Shown piece after piece: positions 3,039 through 47,714 of a stretch of DNA of 47,714 nt; the stretch's first letter is position 1, and the number at the start of each line of letters is the position of its first letter. Origin of the DNA: a virus (lineage: Duplodnaviria > Heunggongvirae > Uroviricota > Caudoviricetes); the IMG/VR virus record IMGVR_UViG_2541047681_000007, one strand, 5' to 3'. The notes below the pieces were generated by a model. That model was not told where the DNA came from. It was given only the letters and a program-made list of their open reading frames with translations, and made no database searches. The translations under genes and the position numbers were made by a program.

Positions 3039-3857
<819 letters not shown>

Positions 3858-4511: not shown

Positions 4512-7500
4512 TATGCAAGCCTCACAATATAGTTAAATGCGATGTTTTTGACGGTGTTTTCCGCGTTACCAGCAGCGTTAACGGTGATGGTGTGTCCATG
4601 TGAACCAATCGCAACGGAGTGCGTGTGTGCACCAATACCGACAGTATGTGCGTGTGCACCTGCAGATGCTGCTGTGCCGGACAGTGAGTGGCTATGGTTA
4701 CCATCTGTACTGGTATTAGCTAACGCCCCCGTAGACATACCTACTGAGCCTTGTACACCCCAGGTATTTTGACCTGAGCTTGTATAACCATATTGATAAG
4801 TATCTTTAAAAACACTGGGGTTAAATCGACGGCCATCTCTATGGCTGTGATTACCAGCTGCATTCGTGCTGCCACTTAAACTATGGGTATGCGCACCAGT
4901 GTTATTCGTGGATTTAGTGCCGTAATCAAACGACGATGTGGTTTTCGTCCCCAAATCAGTACTGGATGCGCTGGCGCTGTGGGTATGCGATTTTATGCCG
5001 TCCTGTTCCTGAGACAATACGGCACGACCACTGGCGGGCTTGCCCTTAATCGTCCAGCCACGCATATCAGGGATCACGCCTGACGGATAAGCGGCTGCAA
5101 GTTTCGGGTAGGCAGATTTGTCAAAAGTCTGCCCCTGCATCAGGGCATAACCAGACGGAACGGTATCTGATGGCCACGGGATTGGTGCGCCGACTGGGTA
5201 GCTTTCTGGTGGAAGATTTTTCGAGGTATAAACTTCTGCCCAGTCTTCCTCAAAACCATAACCGTCTCTTGAAGAACGGTAGAACAGACCACCATTTCTG
5301 TAATGCGCCTTCATCTGCAAGGTCCGGCAACTTCCGACTCCGGTATAGAAGTTAACCAGAATATAGCTGTCGCCAGAGCGGGTGACATTATAAGCGCCTG
5401 ATTCGGCATTCCAGGGAACGCCACCATCCGCATCGGCATATGTATCCGTTGCCCTTCTGGCAAAAGCAGCCACATGCGCGGCGGTTAAAGTAATATCTTT
5501 GGAACCATCAAACTCAACACCAGAAACCCGTCTTGGCGTTTGCAGCTTTGTTGCTGTTAATGCATTACCGTTCAGACTTGCGGACAGTTTGGTTCCAATA
5601 ACCAGTTCGCCGGTTGCGTTATCAATAGCAAACGGTCTTAATGTATTCCAGCCACCATAAACATCACCTTGATTGGTAAGCAGCAGGTAAGTTTTAGCGC
5701 CATCATTACGCCATAATGCCCCATACTCCCCACCTATCATTCGAATCTGATTACCACCACGCGCTACAATTTCGTCTGTGGCAAAAAGTTTTTTGCACGA
5801 CAAGTTATCGTTAACGATTAACGAATGAGACTCATAAAAACCACGCCCACTCTTAAAATCAAGGATAACGTCCGCCGCGATACATTCAGTCGCCGGATTT
5901 GTTGCCCCAAACTTATAGGTCGTATCATTAACAACGAGATCAGCACCAGGTGCGGATATTGACAGGCCATCTTCGATAAACGCAAAAACAGGGAAAGCTG
6001 CGCCATCAACATAGAACACAGAGCGCAAATCATCGCCCTTATTACTCATCATTATTGAGTGGATGGCTCGTTCATTGTTTTGATATTGCCAGAACATGCC
6101 ATAAGCATAACGCCCCCTGTCAGTCCAGCCGCCAGGCATAACAAATCCGTTAAACTCGCAGTTATTCATCGGATCGCCTGCGGTTCGCGTTGCCGTGGTG
6201 ATAATGACCCTTGATGCCAGTTCGCTTACTGAGCCAGCAGAACGCATAACAACAACAGGGTAATATTTTCCAGATGTTGCACCTGCAGGAGCGTTAACCC
6301 GCACATAACGCATACCACGCTTATCAGCAAAGTCTGTTTTACTGACCGCGTTAATGTTGTTCAGGAAGCGTCCCTTATCGGGTATATCAGCGCCGTTCTG
6401 GTCTTTCTGCAGACGTTTCTCTGCATTGTCATAGGCTGATTTTACTGCCTTTGGCGTTGCCGCCAGCGTTTCAGACGTACTGTTGGTCGCACTGCTTAGC
6501 TGAACTATCCCTTTCTGTGCTGTCGTTGCATCCTGTGCGGTGTATTTCCCGTTAGCCAGGTCATACGCGGCCTTAACGGCTTTTGGTGTTGCCGCCAGTG
6601 ACTCGGAAGTGCTGTTAGTCGCACTACTGAGCTGTACTATCCCCTTTTTCGTCGTGCTCGCATCCTCAAGCGCCACGGCGGATGCAATATCCTCTGCCCG
6701 TTTTGCCGCTGTCTCAGCGCGCGTTGCCGCGGATTCCGCCGTACTTTTGCTCTGTGCTGCCGCCGTCGCACTGCCAGCTGCCTCTGTCGCCTTCGTGGAT
6801 GCTGTCGTGGCGCTGCCCTTCGCTGCTGACGCCTGTCTGGTCGCCTCATCTTTTGAAGCAGACGCCGATGATGCCGATGACGCCGCCGAACTGGCTGACG
6901 ATGCGGCAGCCGTTTTTGAGGATTCTGCACGGGTTTCCGACGCTTTTGCGTTCGTTTCGGATGTCTTCGCTGCGGAAGCAGACCTCGCTGCTGCCGTGGC
7001 CTGCTCAGTGGCTTCGCCAGCCTTCGTTGTGGCTGTTGAAGCAGACGATGCGGCACTTTCTGCCGACTTTCCGGCAGCGGTGGCACTGGCTGAGGCCTGC
7101 CCGGCACTTGTTGACGCGGCGCTGGCAGATGATGCAGCCGCTGTTTTTGAGCCTGCCGCAGCCGAGGCGCTCTGTCCCGCTGCCGTTTCAGAAGACCTGG
7201 CGTTCGTCTCGGACGTTTTTGCCGCCTTCGCGGAATTTCCTGCCGCCGTTGCCGAGGAAGCGGCACTACTGGCGCTTGATGATGCGTTCGTTTCTGATGA
7301 TTTCGCTGCCTCTTTTGAGGCCGCCGCATCCCGGGCTGAGGTGGCAGCTTCTGACGCTTTCGTGGTCGCGGTGGATGCAGAAGTGGCTGCAGATTTTTGT
7401 GACGCTGCAGCATTCGTTTCTGACGTTTTCGCCGCACCGGCACTGGTAGCCGCCGCGCTTTTTGAGGACTCTGCAGCGGCAGCACTTTTTGATGCTTCAG

Positions 7501-32898: not shown

Positions 32899-33816
32899 AT
32901 GGTATCATATTTTATTAAGCCATATCTAAACGACCATATTTATCATTTTAAAGATACTTTTGCGTACGCGTTAGTAAAATCGTATAATTCTTCATTTGTT
33001 ATTTACAAATGGAGAATTAATGTGGCAGCAAACGTTGAATTTGATTTCCCAAATTACTTTGAAGTGGATGAAGAAAAGTTAAGAAGAATTCATTCCATTA
33101 TTAAAAAGAGGCTTCCAGAAAAAAACAAAGAAACTATAGAATTCATTATCAAAAAATCCGATAATTTTATCTACCACACTAAAAACATTATTGATATAAT
33201 TAATGAACCAAATGACTCCACTTCAAAAATAAACAGCATAAAAATTAATTATAATTCAGAAAATATGGATGTTGCTGTATTGCTAAGTAATAAAACAGGT
33301 GCGTCAATAAATGTATCAGGAGAAAATCGTGATGATGTTTTTCTTCTGTCATCCGAGTTGAAGGAATATATATCAAAAGAAGTCGCAAATATAACAAAAA
33401 TGAAATGGATGCAAGCAAGAACTATTTCATCAATAATTATGCTGCTTCTTGTTGGATATATAACGTATATATTTTCGGATATAAAAATAATAGATGCAAA
33501 TGCCCTCAAAGTAGCACTTGAAAGTACAAACCCCAATGACAAGCTTAACTTTTTGATAAGCAAGGGAAATAAAGACATTAAAACAGCAACAACTATAGTA
33601 CCTATGTTTATATTATTACTAGCAGTAATTGCTGGTCAAATCATACCTTTTGAAAAAATCATGAACTATATCTACCCAAGAAACATATTCCTTTTCGGTA
33701 AAGAAATATCTCTCATTGAACGCAAGAAGAGAAATAGAAGTAATATATTTTGGGTGATTATTGTTGGTAGCATCATATCACTTTTAGTTGCATTTATCAG
33801 CACAAGATACATGTAA
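32899..33816 (+). CDS. Hypothetical membrane protein, AT-rich moron (three predicted C-terminal TM helices)
   Basis: 305 aa ORF of low GC content on the strand opposite to late transcription; TM segments ISSIIMLLLVGYITYIF, TIVPMFILLLAVIAGQIIPF, IFWVIIVGSIISLLVAFIS; followed by hairpin terminator. Confidence 0.55.
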   Translation: MVSYFIKPYLNDHIYHFKDTFAYALVKSYNSSFVIYKWRINVAANVEFDFPNYFEVDEEKLRRIHSIIKKRLPEKNKETIEFIIKKSDNFIYHTKNIIDIINEPNDSTSKINSIKINYNSENMDVAVLLSNKTGASINVSGENRDDVFLLSSELKEYISKEVANITKMKWMQARTISSIIMLLLVGYITYIFSDIKIIDANALKVALESTNPNDKLNFLISKGNKDIKTATTIVPMFILLLAVIAGQIIPFEKIMNYIYPRNIFLFGKEISLIERKKRNRSNIFWVIIVGSIISLLVAFISTRYM

Positions 33817-42068: not shown

Positions 42069-42593
42069 ATGTCATTTATTAAAACTTTTTCCGGGAAGCA
42101 TTTTTATTATGACAGGATAAATAAAGACGACATCGTGATTAACGATATCGCGGTTTCCCTTTCAAATATCTGTCGCTTTGCAGGACATCTTTCACACTTC
42201 TACAGCGTCGCCCAACATGCGGTGCTTTGCAGCCAGCTGGTACCGCAGGAATTTGCTTTTGAAGCGTTAATGCATGATGCAACAGAAGCATATTGCCAGG
42301 ACATCCCCGCACCACTGAAACGCCTTCTTCCTGACTATAAACGGATGGAAGAAAAAATAGACGCCGTAATCCGTGAGAAATACGGGTTACCTCCTGTTAT
42401 GAGCACGCCAGTGAAATATGCCGATCTCATCATGCTGGCAACCGAACGCCGCGATCTCGGGCTTGATGATGGCTCTTTCTGGCCCGTACTGGAAGGTATC
42501 CCGGCAACAGAGATGTTCAAAGTTATTCCACTGTCGCCAGGCCATTCCTATGGGATGTTTATGGAACGCTTTAAAGAGTTAACTGAGTCGTAA
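42069..42593 (+). CDS. yfdR: HD-domain 5-prime-deoxynucleotidase YfdR-like
   Basis: MSFIKTFSGKHFYYD..., HD motif region (SVAQHAVL...LMHDATEAY); ORF track starts 10 codons upstream at 42039. Confidence 0.7.
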   Translation: MSFIKTFSGKHFYYDRINKDDIVINDIAVSLSNICRFAGHLSHFYSVAQHAVLCSQLVPQEFAFEALMHDATEAYCQDIPAPLKRLLPDYKRMEEKIDAVIREKYGLPPVMSTPVKYADLIMLATERRDLGLDDGSFWPVLEGIPATEMFKVIPLSPGHSYGMFMERFKELTES

Positions 42594-42701
42594 AAATCAG
42601 CACGTACGAATTCAAACTCTGCCATAAAAGAACATATAAGTAATTTATTAACATATAGATATAGGTTATATTACAAATTGAAAAATTATTGGAGAGCAAC
42701 A

Positions 42702-43568
42702 ATGAATCAAAATCCATTCTCATTCTATGACTTTCTTGGATATTTAATACCAGGTGGTTTTTTTATCCTATTAATGTATTTCTGTGGTTTGACATTCGAT
42801 CTAGATATTGTTATTGACTTAACTGAATTGCTCAGAGGTCAAAGTCAAATCTTTGGCATTTTGAACTACGCTTCAATAGTTATTATATCTTATATAGCTG
42901 GACATTTTATTTCTATCACGTCAGCATTTTTTATCGAAAAATACATGAATAAAGAATTAGGATATCCTTCCAAATATCTATTTAAAAAATTGATAGATAT
43001 CTCAGAAAGCATTTGTAGCCCATCATGCGATGAGAGAAGCGCTGATAAAAAAACAAAAATAAAGAATCGCATAATCAAATGCGTATTATGTCCGATAATA
43101 CTATGGGATTTTGCAACACAAAAACTATGTTATTCTCAATCTCTACCATTTCATTTAGCTAATACAACATGGTTAATGATCAAAGAAGGTTATGAGAAAA
43201 AGTTCATAACAAATCGCCAATTATTACAAGATAAAAACGGACTTGATGATGATCTCTTCAGATTGGCATATCATTATGTTTATGAGTTTTCAAAACAACA
43301 TCAAACAAAAATTCAAAACTATGTTGCATTATATGGTTTTTGCAGAAACATATGTTTAATCTTTATAATTTCATTTTGGGTATCAGTTCCAACCTTTATT
43401 TATCGGTTATGTACTCATAGTGATTATCTTTATAGTTTACTTTCAATAATGCTTAGCTTTTTCTTCGTCTATGTTTTCTATGTTGGTTTTGTTAAATTTT
43501 ATAGAAGATATACTTTAGAAGTATTAATGGCATTTGCTGTACTTCAAAGTAACGACACTATTCGTTAA
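42702..43568 (+). CDS. Hypothetical polytopic membrane protein, AT-rich moron
   Basis: 288 aa from ATG preceded by GGAGAG; multiple hydrophobic helices (LGYLIPGGFFILLMYFCGL, IFGILNYASIVIISYIAGHFISI, ICLIFIISFWVSVPTFIY, LLSIMLSFFFVYVFYVGFV); low GC; ORF track starts at 42678. Confidence 0.55.
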   Translation: MNQNPFSFYDFLGYLIPGGFFILLMYFCGLTFDLDIVIDLTELLRGQSQIFGILNYASIVIISYIAGHFISITSAFFIEKYMNKELGYPSKYLFKKLIDISESICSPSCDERSADKKTKIKNRIIKCVLCPIILWDFATQKLCYSQSLPFHLANTTWLMIKEGYEKKFITNRQLLQDKNGLDDDLFRLAYHYVYEFSKQHQTKIQNYVALYGFCRNICLIFIISFWVSVPTFIYRLCTHSDYLYSLLSIMLSFFFVYVFYVGFVKFYRRYTLEVLMAFAVLQSNDTIR

Positions 43569-43609: not shown

Positions 43610-43816
43610 ATGCTGAACCTCGATTGTGTTCCTATCTCAACTTATTGCAAAGAAACTGGCGAAACTCCTGAAGCAATAAACAAACGTGTACAGCGCGGTG
43701 TTTGGCGTGAAGGTGTTCAGGTTTTAAAGGTTGAAGGCGTTAAGGAGAGGTGGATTGATCTTAGTGAGGTTGCAAAATGGGCCAGACAAAACTGCTCAAA
43801 CTACCGCGCGGCGTAA
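43610..43816 (+). CDS. xis: Excisionase-like DNA-binding protein (Xis/AlpA-type)
   Basis: small basic protein immediately upstream of and overlapping int; GGAG 6 nt upstream of ATG at 43610; ORF track starts at 43571. Confidence 0.5.
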   Translation: MLNLDCVPISTYCKETGETPEAINKRVQRGVWREGVQVLKVEGVKERWIDLSEVAKWARQNCSNYRAA

Positions 43817-44943
43817 CAATCAGGAAACACCGCCAGGGAGAAACGATCAATATAACTTTCACCTACAAAGGAGTTAGATGTCGTGAGCCGCTTTCCAATC
43901 TGGAAGTAACACCAAAGAACATTAAATACGCCGAGCGTACACTCGGCGAAATCCATAATAAGATCGAAAGGGGAACATTCATTTATGCAGAATATTTTCC
44001 CCGTTCTGCTCGTTTAAAAATTTTTGGTAATGCTGCTGCAGGCAAAACGGTAAAGATGTACCTGGACGAATATCTTGAAATCTGCGAAACAAGAAAACTT
44101 TCACCCTCTACGATTGGTGGCTATAAAAAATGCCGTAGTGCGTTAGCCTCACTTCACATTTGCCCTGCAAGTGAATTAACACCAGCAACCCTGAAAGCGT
44201 GGATTCAAAGCCAGAAAACAACCTTAAAAACCATTCGCAACCAGTTATCTTTCCTGCGGTCAGCACTTGATGAAGCCGTGACCGATGGGGTACTTCAAAT
44301 TAACCCCGTATCGTTAGTAACAGCTTCGCGCTACCAAAGTGATAAGTCAGAAGCAGAAAGCAGCTATGTGGTTGATCCGCTATCACCAGCAGAAGTTGAT
44401 GCATTACTAGCAGCAGCCGGAAACAAACAATGGGAAAATCTGTTCCGGTTCGCCATACATACAGGCCTGCGTAGTTCTGAATTATGTGCCCTACGATGGC
44501 ATGATATCGACTTTGTTGGAAAAACAGCCCATGTTCAGAGCGCAAGTGTTGTCGGAGTTATCAAAGGAACAAAGACAAAAGCCGGTACCCGTAAAGTTGA
44601 ACTGACTGAAGAAGCAATGTTGGCGTTGATAAACCAGAAGCCATTTACATTCATGAAGGATGCTACTGTCTTTGAAGATCCAAAGACCAATAAACCCTGG
44701 GCAAGTGCTGATGCAATTAGGAAAAAAGCATGGGTGCCAACATTGCGAAAAGCAGGTATTCGTTACAGAAACCCATATCAAACCAGGCATACATTCGCCA
44801 CCAGCCATATCAGCCGGGGAGCAAACCTGTTTTGGCTTGCAGCTCAAATGGGGCATAAAGGGCCTGAGATGCTTTTCAGGCACTATGGCTCATATCTGAA
44901 GGAATATGATGGACAAACAAGCTTGAAGAAGATAACAATATAA
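43777..44943 (+). CDS. int: Tyrosine integrase (phage integrase family)
   Basis: 388 aa; catalytic-region motifs RHTFATSH and LFRHYGSY (R...HxxR...Y), N-terminal arm-binding-like domain. Confidence 0.85.
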   Translation: MGQTKLLKLPRGVTIRKHRQGETINITFTYKGVRCREPLSNLEVTPKNIKYAERTLGEIHNKIERGTFIYAEYFPRSARLKIFGNAAAGKTVKMYLDEYLEICETRKLSPSTIGGYKKCRSALASLHICPASELTPATLKAWIQSQKTTLKTIRNQLSFLRSALDEAVTDGVLQINPVSLVTASRYQSDKSEAESSYVVDPLSPAEVDALLAAAGNKQWENLFRFAIHTGLRSSELCALRWHDIDFVGKTAHVQSASVVGVIKGTKTKAGTRKVELTEEAMLALINQKPFTFMKDATVFEDPKTNKPWASADAIRKKAWVPTLRKAGIRYRNPYQTRHTFATSHISRGANLFWLAAQMGHKGPEMLFRHYGSYLKEYDGQTSLKKITI

Positions 44944-44959
44944 TCCAAGCATGAAACTA

Positions 44960-44985
44960 TTGGCCACAATTTGTGGCCATTTTAC
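44960..44985 (+). terminator. Hairpin terminator downstream of int
   Basis: TTGGCCACAA-T-TTGTGGCCA perfect inverted repeat followed by TTTTAC. Confidence 0.5.
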
Positions 44986-45001
44986 GGAGCAAGATAGAAA
45001 C

Positions 45002-46735
45002 ATGGCAAATCAAATTACCAAACTAAAAAATATAAATGTTGTGAAGTTTCGCGGACTGAAAAATATAAACATCGAGTTTGGTTCTCGCCTAACTGTTATT
45101 TGTGGTAAAAATGGCACATCTAAATCCACAATTCTTGGCATTATCGCCCAAATATTTAGCTTTACAAAGGACTTTACCAAAAACCCTGAGACTGATTTAA
45201 CACAATATAAAACATTAACAAATGGCAGCTTCAAGTCAGCTTTCAGCGAACATTTTAGGCTTTCAGAACAATTTGATGTTCCTGGTTCAATGGACGTCAA
45301 AATTAGTGTCTATGATGGTGCATCGAACAAACATCTTGAAAAACTAACATTAGGTTTATACAGCTACAGTGACAGAGATAAATCAAGGCCTGTAGTCAGG
45401 GGAAATGATTCAATACCGGAAAAAAACCAAAGTAGAAACGTTACTCATCCTGTTATTTTTTTAAGCTTAGCACGACTTCTTCCTATTACATTAAGGACTG
45501 ATTACTCAACACGGGATGTTCAGTACATCAATGAAAATTCTGATGAAATCAGAATGATGAGTAACCAACTCTTACTAAAAAACAATGGAAGCTCAGTAAC
45601 AGCAACAAAAGGTACTATCGATTCAATGGTTGTCCATGGTGACAATTATGATCACCAATCAGTATCTGTTGGTGAAGATAATGTTGGACAATTAATCCAA
45701 GCAATTTTTTCATTTAAAAGATTGAAGGAAACTTATTCTGATTATCATGGCGGAATATTGTTAATTGATGAAGCCGATGCAGGTCTTTTCCCTGCTGCAC
45801 AGTTAGAGCTAATTAATATTCTAACTAAAGCAGCAAAACAATACGATCTGCAAATAATCATGACCTCGCACTCTCCATTAATAATAGAGGATATCTATAA
45901 TCGTTCAAAACAAGATAGTGATAGCTTTAAAACAATATATCTTACAGACACATATGGAGATATTAAAACAAAGAATAATCTTTCATGGACAGATATCCAC
46001 GCTGATTTACATGTTGAAACTGTAAAAATTAATGATGACATTTGTCTTCCAAAGGCAAATGTATATTTTGAAGACAAAGAAGGTTTCGACTTTTTCAAAC
46101 AATTGATAACAGATCGAAAAATAAATAAAATATTAAATCCATTAGGGAATATAAATATTAGCTGCTCTGCCATGCTTGACTTAATGGCAAGAAAAATACC
46201 AGAATTTACAGCTAAAAGCTTGATCGTCTTAGACGGTGATGTTGTTCACGACAATAGTGCTAATGCAAAAAAAGCCAAAAAAGAAAAAAACTTATGTTTG
46301 CTTCCAAGCACCTTACCTCCAGACCAAATGATTTTTGAGTTTTTATATAATTTACCACCTGATGATGCATATTGGGAAAATAAAAATAAATTTACAAAAG
46401 CTGTTTTTATGAAAACAGCTAAAGACATAATTGCAACGCTAAAGATTGGTAACGCTCCGATTGATTTAAAAATCCTTATAGATAATTATAAAAAAGTTAA
46501 CAAAAACCATGGCGGGATAGTTAGAAAACTGTTTAAAGATTTTGCACATACGACTCAATTTCAGGCCCAAGTAAAAGGGCGAGTTAAAGATAACCCATAT
46601 CGATATTGGGTCGAGAAAAATCCTGTGCAATCGGATAGCTTCAAGAATGAACTAATAAAGAGTCTTAAAGTTATTATGACAAGTGGACATGGTGTCGATT
46701 CTGCTACCATCTCATCATATCTGTCAGATAACTAA
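45002..46735 (+). CDS. OLD-family nuclease-like protein (N-terminal ABC-type ATPase, C-terminal TOPRIM-like domain)
   Basis: Walker A CGKNGTSKST, Walker B ILLIDEADAGLFP, H-loop-like TSHSP; C-terminal region with EG-x-D (FEDKEGFD) and DxD (LIVLDGDVV) TOPRIM-like motifs; 577 aa from ATG 45002 (MANQITKL...), comparable to P2 Old; ORF track starts at 44951 inside the int terminator. Confidence 0.6.
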   Translation: MANQITKLKNINVVKFRGLKNINIEFGSRLTVICGKNGTSKSTILGIIAQIFSFTKDFTKNPETDLTQYKTLTNGSFKSAFSEHFRLSEQFDVPGSMDVKISVYDGASNKHLEKLTLGLYSYSDRDKSRPVVRGNDSIPEKNQSRNVTHPVIFLSLARLLPITLRTDYSTRDVQYINENSDEIRMMSNQLLLKNNGSSVTATKGTIDSMVVHGDNYDHQSVSVGEDNVGQLIQAIFSFKRLKETYSDYHGGILLIDEADAGLFPAAQLELINILTKAAKQYDLQIIMTSHSPLIIEDIYNRSKQDSDSFKTIYLTDTYGDIKTKNNLSWTDIHADLHVETVKINDDICLPKANVYFEDKEGFDFFKQLITDRKINKILNPLGNINISCSAMLDLMARKIPEFTAKSLIVLDGDVVHDNSANAKKAKKEKNLCLLPSTLPPDQMIFEFLYNLPPDDAYWENKNKFTKAVFMKTAKDIIATLKIGNAPIDLKILIDNYKKVNKNHGGIVRKLFKDFAHTTQFQAQVKGRVKDNPYRYWVEKNPVQSDSFKNELIKSLKVIMTSGHGVDSATISSYLSDN

Positions 46736-46814: not shown

Positions 46815-47714
46815 ATGCGTTTTAACACCCCACTTCGCTATCCTGGCGGTAAAGGCAAGCTTGCAAATTTCATGCTTCGGCTTATTGAAGAAAATAATCT
46901 TTCGCCTATACATTATGCCGAACCATATGCTGGGGGTGCTGGTTTAGCATTGAAACTGTTACATCTAAATGCAGCTGAAAAAATCATCCTTAATGATATT
47001 AATATTTCTGTTTATGCTTTTTGGCACAGTGTATTAAATCATGCAGATCAATTATGTTCTTTAATTGAAAGAACTGAAGTTACAATGGATGAATGGTTTA
47101 GGCAGAAAGATATAATTAATAATCCTAAAGACCATGATCTTTTAACAATTGGTTTCTCAACCTTTTTTCTCAATAGAACAAATCGCTCTGGAATATTAAA
47201 AGGTGGAGTAATTGGCGGTAAAAATCAAGAAGGGAAATGGAAGCTTGACGCTCGCTATAATAAGAGTGATTTGATTTCTCGAATCCATAAAATATCAGAA
47301 AATCGTCACAGAATAGATTTATATAACATGGATGCAATTGATTTCATTAAAAAAATAGTTATTCAATTGCCACAAAACTCATTAACATATTTGGATCCAC
47401 CTTATTACATAAAAGGTAAAGGTTTATATATCAACCATTATAATCATGATGATCATGTTAGGGTTGCAAAAGTCGTACAGAATAATATTAAAACACCTTG
47501 GATTGTTTCTTACGATAACACTCCTGAGATCCAAGCTATGTATAAGACATCATCATTAGTATATGGAATAAACTACAGTGCTCAAGATCGGTACAAAGGA
47601 TCTGAGGTAATGTTCTTCAGTGAACGATTGAAAATCTTTAAAACAGATGATCCAACTAAGGTAAAAGCGCCTGTATTTAAAAGAGGATGTGTTGACGACC
47701 ACATCCAGACATAA
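46815..47714 (+). CDS. Dam-like DNA N6-adenine methyltransferase (D12 class)
   Basis: N-terminal YPGGKGKL and EPYAGGAGLAL (AdoMet binding), FFLNRTNRSG, catalytic DPPYY; stop codon is the last three bases of the window. Confidence 0.75.
   Translation: MRFNTPLRYPGGKGKLANFMLRLIEENNLSPIHYAEPYAGGAGLALKLLHLNAAEKIILNDINISVYAFWHSVLNHADQLCSLIERTEVTMDEWFRQKDIINNPKDHDLLTIGFSTFFLNRTNRSGILKGGVIGGKNQEGKWKLDARYNKSDLISRIHKISENRHRIDLYNMDAIDFIKKIVIQLPQNSLTYLDPPYYIKGKGLYINHYNHDDHVRVAKVVQNNIKTPWIVSYDNTPEIQAMYKTSSLVYGINYSAQDRYKGSEVMFFSERLKIFKTDDPTKVKAPVFKRGCVDDHIQT

Follow-up and report, generated by a model that had tools for sequence, protein, structure and literature searches.

A probable stand-alone inner-membrane protein, distantly related to Csx27, between yfdR and the excisionase gene of a lambdoid prophage

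The locus

The IMG/VR virus record IMGVR_UViG_2541047681_000007 (Duplodnaviria, Heunggongvirae, Uroviricota, Caudoviricetes) is a stretch of 47,714 nucleotides, called the window below, that carries an intact open reading frame (ORF) of 288 codons on the + strand at 42702-43568. An earlier reading made from the letters and their translations (the sequence-only reading) had placed this ORF, as an AT-rich polytopic membrane protein, between a yfdR-like gene and xis/int, and that location is correct. We conclude with high confidence that its product is a stand-alone inner-membrane protein of a ~280-aa family, that this family is a distant and enlarged branch of Csx27, the accessory protein of type VI-B1 CRISPR-Cas13b loci, and that the gene travels as a mobile single-gene cassette. 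The cassette and its flanks are laid out as follows.

42069..42593, + strand: yfdR, HD-domain 5'-deoxynucleotidase; left flank, a conserved backbone gene and not a partner of the ORF
42594..42701, + strand: upstream spacer of the cassette, 108 bp; its last ~75 nt co-travel with the gene on different prophage backbones
42702..43568, + strand: gene of the 288-aa, distantly Csx27-like protein with four predicted transmembrane helices; PHROG 12528; RefSeq WP_021512747 / WP_001075212, 'hypothetical protein'
43610..43816, + strand: excisionase (PHROG 2917); right flank
43777..44943, + strand: tyrosine integrase (Arm-DNA-bind_2 + Phage_integrase); right flank

Translation starts at the ATG at 42702 and not at an alternative in-frame TTG at 42678, which would lengthen the ORF by 8 residues, because a Shine-Dalgarno GGAG (42691-42694) stands before this ATG with a 7-nt spacer, RefSeq has the 288-aa form, and the homologs all start MNQNPFS. 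The GC content of the ORF is atypically low, as the sequence-only reading had said; we measured 28.7% overall and 22% at third codon positions, as against 51% for the prophage body. Its description as highly hydrophobic needs qualifying, since four transmembrane (TM) segments are present but the grand average of hydropathy is only +0.32, the protein being a 4-TM one with a large soluble domain. Its nine Cys residues are likewise real, but none of them is invariant across the family (110 diverse sequences), and Cys content was therefore dropped as a functional clue.

The gene and its family

That the ORF is a real gene is confirmed by an end-to-end match to PHROG 12528 (3e-173), by a dN/dS of 0.20-0.23 (alleles ~85% and ~79% identical) and by hundreds of clusters of relatives. 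Its DNA was found in 205 of 5426 complete E. coli genomes, where the annotation is always 'hypothetical protein'. A word-indexed search gave 593 relative clusters at 90% identity and an exhaustive profile search 947 at 50% identity, 203 of these below 1e-30; the best 150 clusters of the exhaustive search are mostly full-length proteins of about 270-300 aa. Among the named sources are Enterobacteriaceae, Pseudomonas, Thioalkalivibrio, Luteimonas, Sulfuritalea, Vibrio and Thermodesulfobacteriota. This is thus a large family that has neither a Pfam family nor a solved fold.

Members are more AT-rich than their flanks in 42 of 43 lineages (loci L006-L178; mean difference 11 points), including those in hosts of 55-67% GC. 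Low GC is therefore a lasting trait of the family and not a sign of recent transfer. Such family-wide AT-richness is typical of mobile accessory cargo, and the composition would be compatible with xenogeneic silencing.

Membrane architecture and conserved motifs

Hydropathy delimits four TM segments, at residues ~10-32, 53-78, 207-237 and 243-266, with a 128-residue basic domain (22 K/R against 14 D/E) between TM2 and TM3. The basic character of this domain suggests, by the positive-inside rule, that it is cytoplasmic and that the topology is N-in/C-in. The parts of the protein, with the mean conservation of its blocks, are these.

42711..42755, + strand: NPFSxYDFLGYLIPG, the N-terminal motif (residues 4-18) and best-conserved block of the family (0.90), in Csx27 SxYExLxFVxPG
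42729..42797, + strand: predicted TM1, residues ~10-32, from hydropathy; helix 8-32 in the AlphaFold2 model
42858..42935, + strand: predicted TM2, residues ~53-78, from hydropathy and AlphaFold2; Y64, G67, H68 and S74 invariant
42936..43319, + strand: basic helical domain in the centre of the protein, residues 79-206, predicted to be cytoplasmic; block E79..PSxYLF after TM2 (0.80), and block DLFRLAYHYxYE..HQxKIQNYVALYGFxR before and into TM3 (0.83)
43320..43412, + strand: predicted TM3, residues ~207-237; begins with the motif YVALYGFCRN, whose Csx27 counterpart is (S)xYFxFRN
43428..43499, + strand: predicted TM4, residues ~243-266, from hydropathy and AlphaFold2
43488..43541, + strand: post-TM4 motif FVKFYRRYxLEVLMAF, residues 263-280 (0.88)

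The 110 diverse sequences share 37 invariant positions. In the central domain it is the ends that are conserved (E79..PSxYLF; DLFRLAYHYxYE..HQxKIQNY), around a variable middle (residues 96-128 and 160-182; mean conservation 0.34), and the two predicted periplasmic loops, both short, score 0.31 and 0.11. The four conserved juxtamembrane blocks thus share one face of the membrane, predicted to be the cytoplasmic one. An AlphaFold2 model built from the 110-sequence alignment is all-helical (pLDDT 85.3, pTM 0.85), and in it TM2-TM4, three of the four TM helices, extend into the side of the central domain. No Foldseek match of the model to PDB or BFVD reached E <=1e-3, and a search of PDB sequences with the 110-sequence profile gave no matches.

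Relationship to Csx27

The only recurrent link that homology searches provided is to Csx27. The window protein matches the PADLOC Csx27 model (PDLC01605) at 7e-6; 70 of 90 diverse relatives match it as well (best E 2e-10), and 23 of the 90 match tm_4, a second PADLOC model associated with type VI-B. Pfam gave scattered single matches on these 90 relatives and no TM family consistently. The independent NCBIfam Csx27 equivalog NF040557, with a curated cutoff of 65 bits, gives 15-20 bits, the window protein scoring 15.2 bits (E 0.016).

To compare the family with genuine Csx27, we went from the type VI-B repeat of B. zoohelcum to Cas13b, from there to Cas13b homologs and on to their contigs. A metagenome scan with the Cas13b N-terminus gave no matches, and the 8-kb loci of the B. 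zoohelcum repeat search ended at the start of cas13b. The contigs yielded Csx27 proteins of 219 aa (Capnocytophaga) and 226 aa (Myroides), each encoded directly upstream of cas13b and scoring 290 and 315 bits on NF040557. A hidden Markov model of the prophage family scores these two at 25.0 and 15.1 bits, with matches that are collinear and fall in two segments, the N-terminal and the pre-TM3 motif. The maximum among 4000 composition-preserving shuffles is 15.4 bits; hhalign of the family against Csx27 gives E 7.9e-5 with a probability of 61%. We conclude that the window protein is a distant relative of Csx27, neither an equivalog nor Csx27 proper, on evidence that is not overwhelming.

Both proteins are small, have four predicted TM helices and carry the N-terminal motif SxY[DE]xLxx[VI]xPG followed by the pre-TM3 motif F..AY.Y...K.QN..xY.F.RN, and their profiles match in both directions. 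In contrast to the ~220 aa of Csx27, the window protein has ~280 aa, about 60 residues more, with a longer central domain. Csx27 is without its invariant H68/H191/E195/H200 and its C-terminal motif KFYRRYxLE. The window gene has yfdR and xis/int as neighbours instead of cas13b or a CRISPR array, and the protein was not found in Bacteroidota.

The four TM helices and the detectable, if distant, homology are those of a Csx27-like superfamily, whose typical operon partners, according to an abstract by Makarova and co-workers, are reportedly natural-transformation genes, ubiquitin-system fusion proteins and WYL-HTH regulators. Across 54 lineages no such recurrent partner was found; a WYL gene lies ~7 kb off in one island. 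The 'expansive' Csx27 family that these authors are said to describe may already include the prophage family. We found no publication stating the relationship of the prophage family to Csx27.

As a side observation, csx27 of Capnocytophaga canimorsus Cc5 (locus L025, 2333-2991, upstream of cas13b) is broken into two ORFs (124 and 89 aa), which jointly correspond to the intact Csx27 of C. stomatis; the probable explanation is either a frameshifted pseudogene or an error in sequencing.

Comparison with other membrane proteins

The sequence-only reading had named a known transporter or a fragment of a lipopolysaccharide-modification enzyme as what would speak against it; no such family was matched. 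Pfam, NCBIfam and PDB-sequence searches with the protein, the 90 relatives and the 110-sequence profile gave no family beyond the weak Csx27 link, and the Gtr/Oac conversion genes and transporters showed no match in sequence or fold. For RexB, SieB, Imm, CPBP/Abi and SLATT there was no Pfam match with the protein or the 90 relatives, and PADLOC returned only Csx27 and tm_4.

The resemblance to lambda RexB, lambda/P22 SieB, P22 SieA and T4 Imm is that all are small polytopic inner-membrane proteins encoded by phage accessory genes, RexB having four TM helices too. RexB, SieB and Imm differ in lacking sequence similarity to the window protein, and RexB also in its dependence on RexA, whereas the window gene is solitary. 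MotA/PomA/ExbB stators and ZorA of Zorya share the plan of a large cytoplasmic domain set between the second and third of four TM helices, but the window protein has no MotA_ExbB Pfam match and no MotB/ExbD/ZorB-like partner. Chains of MotA and PomA turn up repeatedly among the best Foldseek matches in PDB, at insignificant values (E about 1-4, TM-score about 0.2) that reflect shared topology only, and a stator-like identity was rejected.

Genomic contexts of the family

The sequence-only reading had called the position a moron slot and had proposed comparing it with the equivalent locus of related prophages. That comparison shows it to be polymorphic. In nearly all of ~3000 E. coli genomes with yfdQ-yfdR, homology to the window ends at the yfdR stop codon, and homology with prophages that do not have the ORF breaks off at about 42588. 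In E. coli 042, xis, int and the ATPase and methylase genes downstream are the same, but the slot holds yfdS-like and 71-aa ORFs, and other prophages hold longer strings of small genes there. In the window, then, the cassette replaces yfdS-type genes between yfdR and xis/int. The 79% allele occupies the same slot in another prophage, which has a different excision module and is inserted next to a truncated tRNA-dihydrouridine synthase gene.

Family members occur in 69 IMG/VR contigs. Throughout the enterobacterial lineages (48-99% identity) the gene is followed directly by a small xis-like ORF and an integrase gene, with at least 3 types of integrase, and Klebsiella phage P7641 has the same arrangement; on the other side the neighbours vary between yfdR, ParB-HTH proteins and S24 repressors. 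An alignment of upstream sequences shows ~75 nt shared across different backbones. Together with a homolog in a P2 hotspot, these several xis-int lineages bear out an accessory slot.

The P2-like Peduoviridae carry that homolog (43%) between gpA/ParM and the portal gene gpQ, which we take to be where old and tin lie on the P2 map. It has been catalogued in Table S5B of Rousset et al. 2022 (PMC9122126) as protein 2 of hotspot system #3 ('DUF4760; 1 TM in protein 1, 4 TM in protein 2'; 1102 occurrences), and its identity to the window protein is 43.6% over residues 1-273 (E 8e-63). Both are thus hotspot cargo of temperate coliphages and belong to one family. They differ in place, the one in the gpA-gpQ (old/tin) hotspot and the other in the lambdoid yfdR/xis slot, and in company: a 165-aa single-TM DUF4760 protein precedes the 4-TM protein in system #3, whereas the window has no DUF4760 gene, and tblastn of the DUF4760 protein against the window found nothing. 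In E. coli the allele group of the window alone is present in ~4% of complete genomes, to which the 1102 occurrences in P2-like hotspots are to be added.

The DUF4760 protein always comes before the family member in P2-like phages (L080, 5464-5961; L022, 4800-4961), and 18 nt ahead of its start stands a strong terminator-like hairpin (10 pairs, 7 G-C); in record ON470623 the DUF4760 ORF is unannotated and readable on the + strand in its C-terminal part only. DUF4760 is confined to P2-like loci and was rejected as a general partner.

A recurrent partner was sought by clustering three neighbours per side in the 54 lineages: none recurs in more than four lineages, and those that come closest are integrases. 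Other phage lineages place the family member beside AIPR, PIN-like, AAA_13 or C5-methylase genes, and relatives outside phages share their islands with HipA, HicAB, HigB, integrase, WYL and methylase genes. The gene stands alone, a mobile AT-rich cassette of one gene. An 8xMP-like gene was also rejected as a general partner, being confined to one Pseudomonas lineage: in Pseudomonas sp. (L006, 7882-8352) a 156-aa protein encoded 39 nt downstream of the family member scores 27.3 bits, below the cutoff of 30, on the 'octameric membrane protein' family 8xMP and may be a lineage-specific partner. Separately, a slot between the genes of a DUF1367 protein and a DnaB-type helicase in IMG/VR prophage contigs (L089-L091) holds the family member and an AIPR or PIN_8 protein, alternately, and looks like another small defence-type hotspot.

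Transcription

From the early-left position the sequence-only reading had deduced expression in the lysogen. This does not follow: an early-left location implies repression in the lysogen unless the gene has a promoter of its own. A promoter scan found no consensus sigma-70 promoter in the 108-bp spacer (42594-42701), where, by eye, a TTAACA/TTGACA box has its nearest -10-like hexamers only 13-15 nt away, so that no promoter can be called; a terminator scan found none flanking the ORF, neither before nor after it. With no consensus promoter and no flanking terminator, read-through of the early-left transcript into xis/int is plausible.

Other members offer different arrangements. In a related prophage with an S24 repressor gene (L070), positions 5643-5701 hold a terminator (9 pairs and a T-run) followed at once by TTGACA-16-CATAAT, a near-consensus promoter sequence (11/12). 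The two lie between the repressor gene and the family member, 300 nt upstream of the start of the latter, which is the first gene after them; this may be an early-left promoter with a long leader. In P2-like phages the pair of DUF4760 and 4-TM genes lies behind a strong terminator and points away from the genes around it, and must therefore have transcription of its own there. In the window prophage the gene may be expressed in the lysogen or early in the lytic cycle.

Possible function

What makes a defence or exclusion role plausible is guilt by association. The contexts include the polymorphic yfdR/xis slot, the xis-int-proximal positions, the P2 hotspot, the defence-type neighbours and the islands with toxin-antitoxin genes, and the same prophage also bears an EcoRII restriction-modification system, a PD-T4-3 gene, and an ATPase with a PD-Lambda-5_B-like methylase. 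The family is repeatedly located where temperate phages keep weapons against other phages. We regard a role at the inner membrane in conflict between phages, or between host and phage, as a serious possibility that falls short of an even chance. In such a role the protein would probably oligomerise to a gate or channel, which could block genome entry of a superinfecting phage, or membrane function could collapse once a cytoplasmic trigger was sensed by the variable part of the central domain; the variable cytoplasmic segment would be a possible specificity element. The cassette, with ~75 nt of its own upstream sequence, moves between accessory hotspots of temperate phages and genomic islands. 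More specifically, the family might be a widespread anti-phage or exclusion module of one gene, a Csx27-type oligomeric gate in the inner membrane whose working part is on the cytoplasmic face and which controls nucleic-acid passage or membrane integrity on infection; in this full form we consider the proposal rather unlikely. If true, such a module would be the abundant cargo of two sites, the P2 old/tin hotspot (system #3) and the lambdoid slot next to xis/int, and would give a first mechanistic handle on the Csx27 that sits beside Cas13b.

Several observations weigh against a role in such conflicts. The homology to Csx27 is weak (15 against 65 bits on NCBIfam; hhalign 61%), and Csx27 does not conserve H191, E195 and H200, which are invariant in the family. 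Nor has a mechanism been established for Csx27: in E. coli its effect was to dampen, and not to enhance, Cas13b interference (bioRxiv 10.1101/092577; PMC11662929), and RFP-tagged Csx27 is reported in the literature to be without visible membrane localisation. No validated defence model was matched (PADLOC gave only the weak Csx27/tm_4 pair), the sequence of system #3 is absent from the tables of cloned systems, S2A and S2B, of Rousset et al. (PMC9122126), and a literature search found no functional study of, or experiment on, any family member. Some relatives sit between housekeeping genes. Co-orientation with the early-left operon and the want of a clear promoter of its own argue against constitutive expression in the lysogen. 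Finally, conservation on the cytoplasmic face together with unconserved periplasmic loops is unlike a classical injection blocker, which contacts incoming phage parts in the periplasm.

An accessory function in the phage's own lytic cycle has a real but minor chance of being the answer. The gene would then be served by the early-left transcript after induction or infection instead of acting as a defence expressed in the lysogen, and might exclude secondary infection, like the T4 early genes imm and sp, affect the state of the membrane or the timing of lysis, or help in host takeover. It lies on the same strand as yfdP/Q/R, xis and int with no terminator before or after it, takes the place of yfdS-type early genes, and in L070 is the first gene after a terminator and an 11/12 promoter downstream of the S24 repressor gene; overexpression of K-12 yfdQRST affects host replication (PMC4776307), so the region encodes host-directed early functions. 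Yet relatives also occur outside phages, in islands or between genes of the chromosome, the ~75 nt that accompany the gene upstream suggest a control region of its own, and in the P2 hotspot the flanking genes are opposite in orientation, which there removes dependence on a lambdoid early promoter. The known cargo of that hotspot, old and tin, is, we take it, expressed in the lysogen. At the other extreme, a hitch-hiking or decaying AT-rich frame without function, which the atypical composition and lack of an annotated function might evoke, is essentially excluded by the conservation data: dN/dS is ~0.2, the ORF is intact in 205 genomes, full-length relatives form 947 clusters, 37 residues are invariant and the fold is modelled with confidence.

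We think it improbable that the protein is a membrane enzyme whose active or metal site, at the cytoplasmic leaflet, consists of the invariant D10, H68, S74, E79, H191, E195, H200 and R215 and which acts on a lipid or envelope precursor, with any phage resistance as a by-product of lysogenic conversion. Its invariant polar and ionisable residues do cluster at one face of the membrane, with H-x3-E-x4-H on one helix, and int-proximal slots of enterobacterial prophages often hold envelope-modifying genes; but neither sequence nor fold matches acyl-, glycosyl- or phospho-transferases, CPBP/Abi proteases or the Gtr/Oac families, Csx27 does not retain the His and Glu residues, and no enzyme partner or substrate-pathway gene is linked to it in the 54 lineages. 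A similarly low probability attaches to a nucleic-acid conduit or regulator of DNA uptake that would serve general DNA traffic and not be directed at phages. That idea draws on the distant Csx27 homology and on the prediction of Makarova et al. 2019, as relayed in PMC7642515 and PMC11662929, that the Csx27 family is a single-stranded DNA channel tied to competence. This is itself a prediction only, and competence, ubiquitin-like or adjacent WYL genes were never recurrent in the sampled neighbourhoods. E. coli, moreover, is not naturally competent under ordinary conditions.

Through the link to Csx27, two puzzles meet: an abundant orphan gene of phage hotspots and a CRISPR accessory protein that is itself enigmatic. 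What appears to be new here is a stand-alone, enlarged, phage-borne Csx27-like protein, its P2-borne cousin having already been catalogued (Rousset et al. 2022). This is no surprise in principle; the orphan gene is abundant, and it might also illuminate Csx27.

Other cargo of the prophage

The sequence-only reading had counted the ORF as the second AT-rich membrane ORF of the window; the first is at 32899-33816 (+ strand, 305 aa, GC 28.9%). That protein has a soluble N-terminal part with hydrophobic segments in its C-terminal third, is encoded on the strand opposite to its neighbours and is unrelated to the product of 42702-43568; Pfam and PADLOC searches with it gave no match.

The left edge of the window holds an EcoRII-type endonuclease gene at 1-1209 (+; EcoRII-N/C, PADLOC REase_II 1.5e-233), convergent with a gene for a Dcm-like C5 methyltransferase at 1244-2719 (-; MTase_II 4e-230), and the two make up a complete type II restriction-modification pair. 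Just outside the tail-fibre end of the prophage, a gene at 3084-3857 (+) encodes a GIY-YIG protein with a full-length match (7.6e-140) to the validated single-gene defence system PD-T4-3. Directly after int come an AAA_15/AAA_21 ATPase gene at 44951-46735 (+), whose best PADLOC matches are PtuA-like (4e-20) with no strong PD-Lambda-5_A match seen, and a Dam-like methylase gene at 46815-47714 (+) that matches PD-Lambda-5_B at 5e-124. Elsewhere the position after int is taken by DarTG in strain EC43 and by STAS-like or hypothetical genes in UTI89; the cargo there differs between strains, and the position is therefore a second variable cargo slot.

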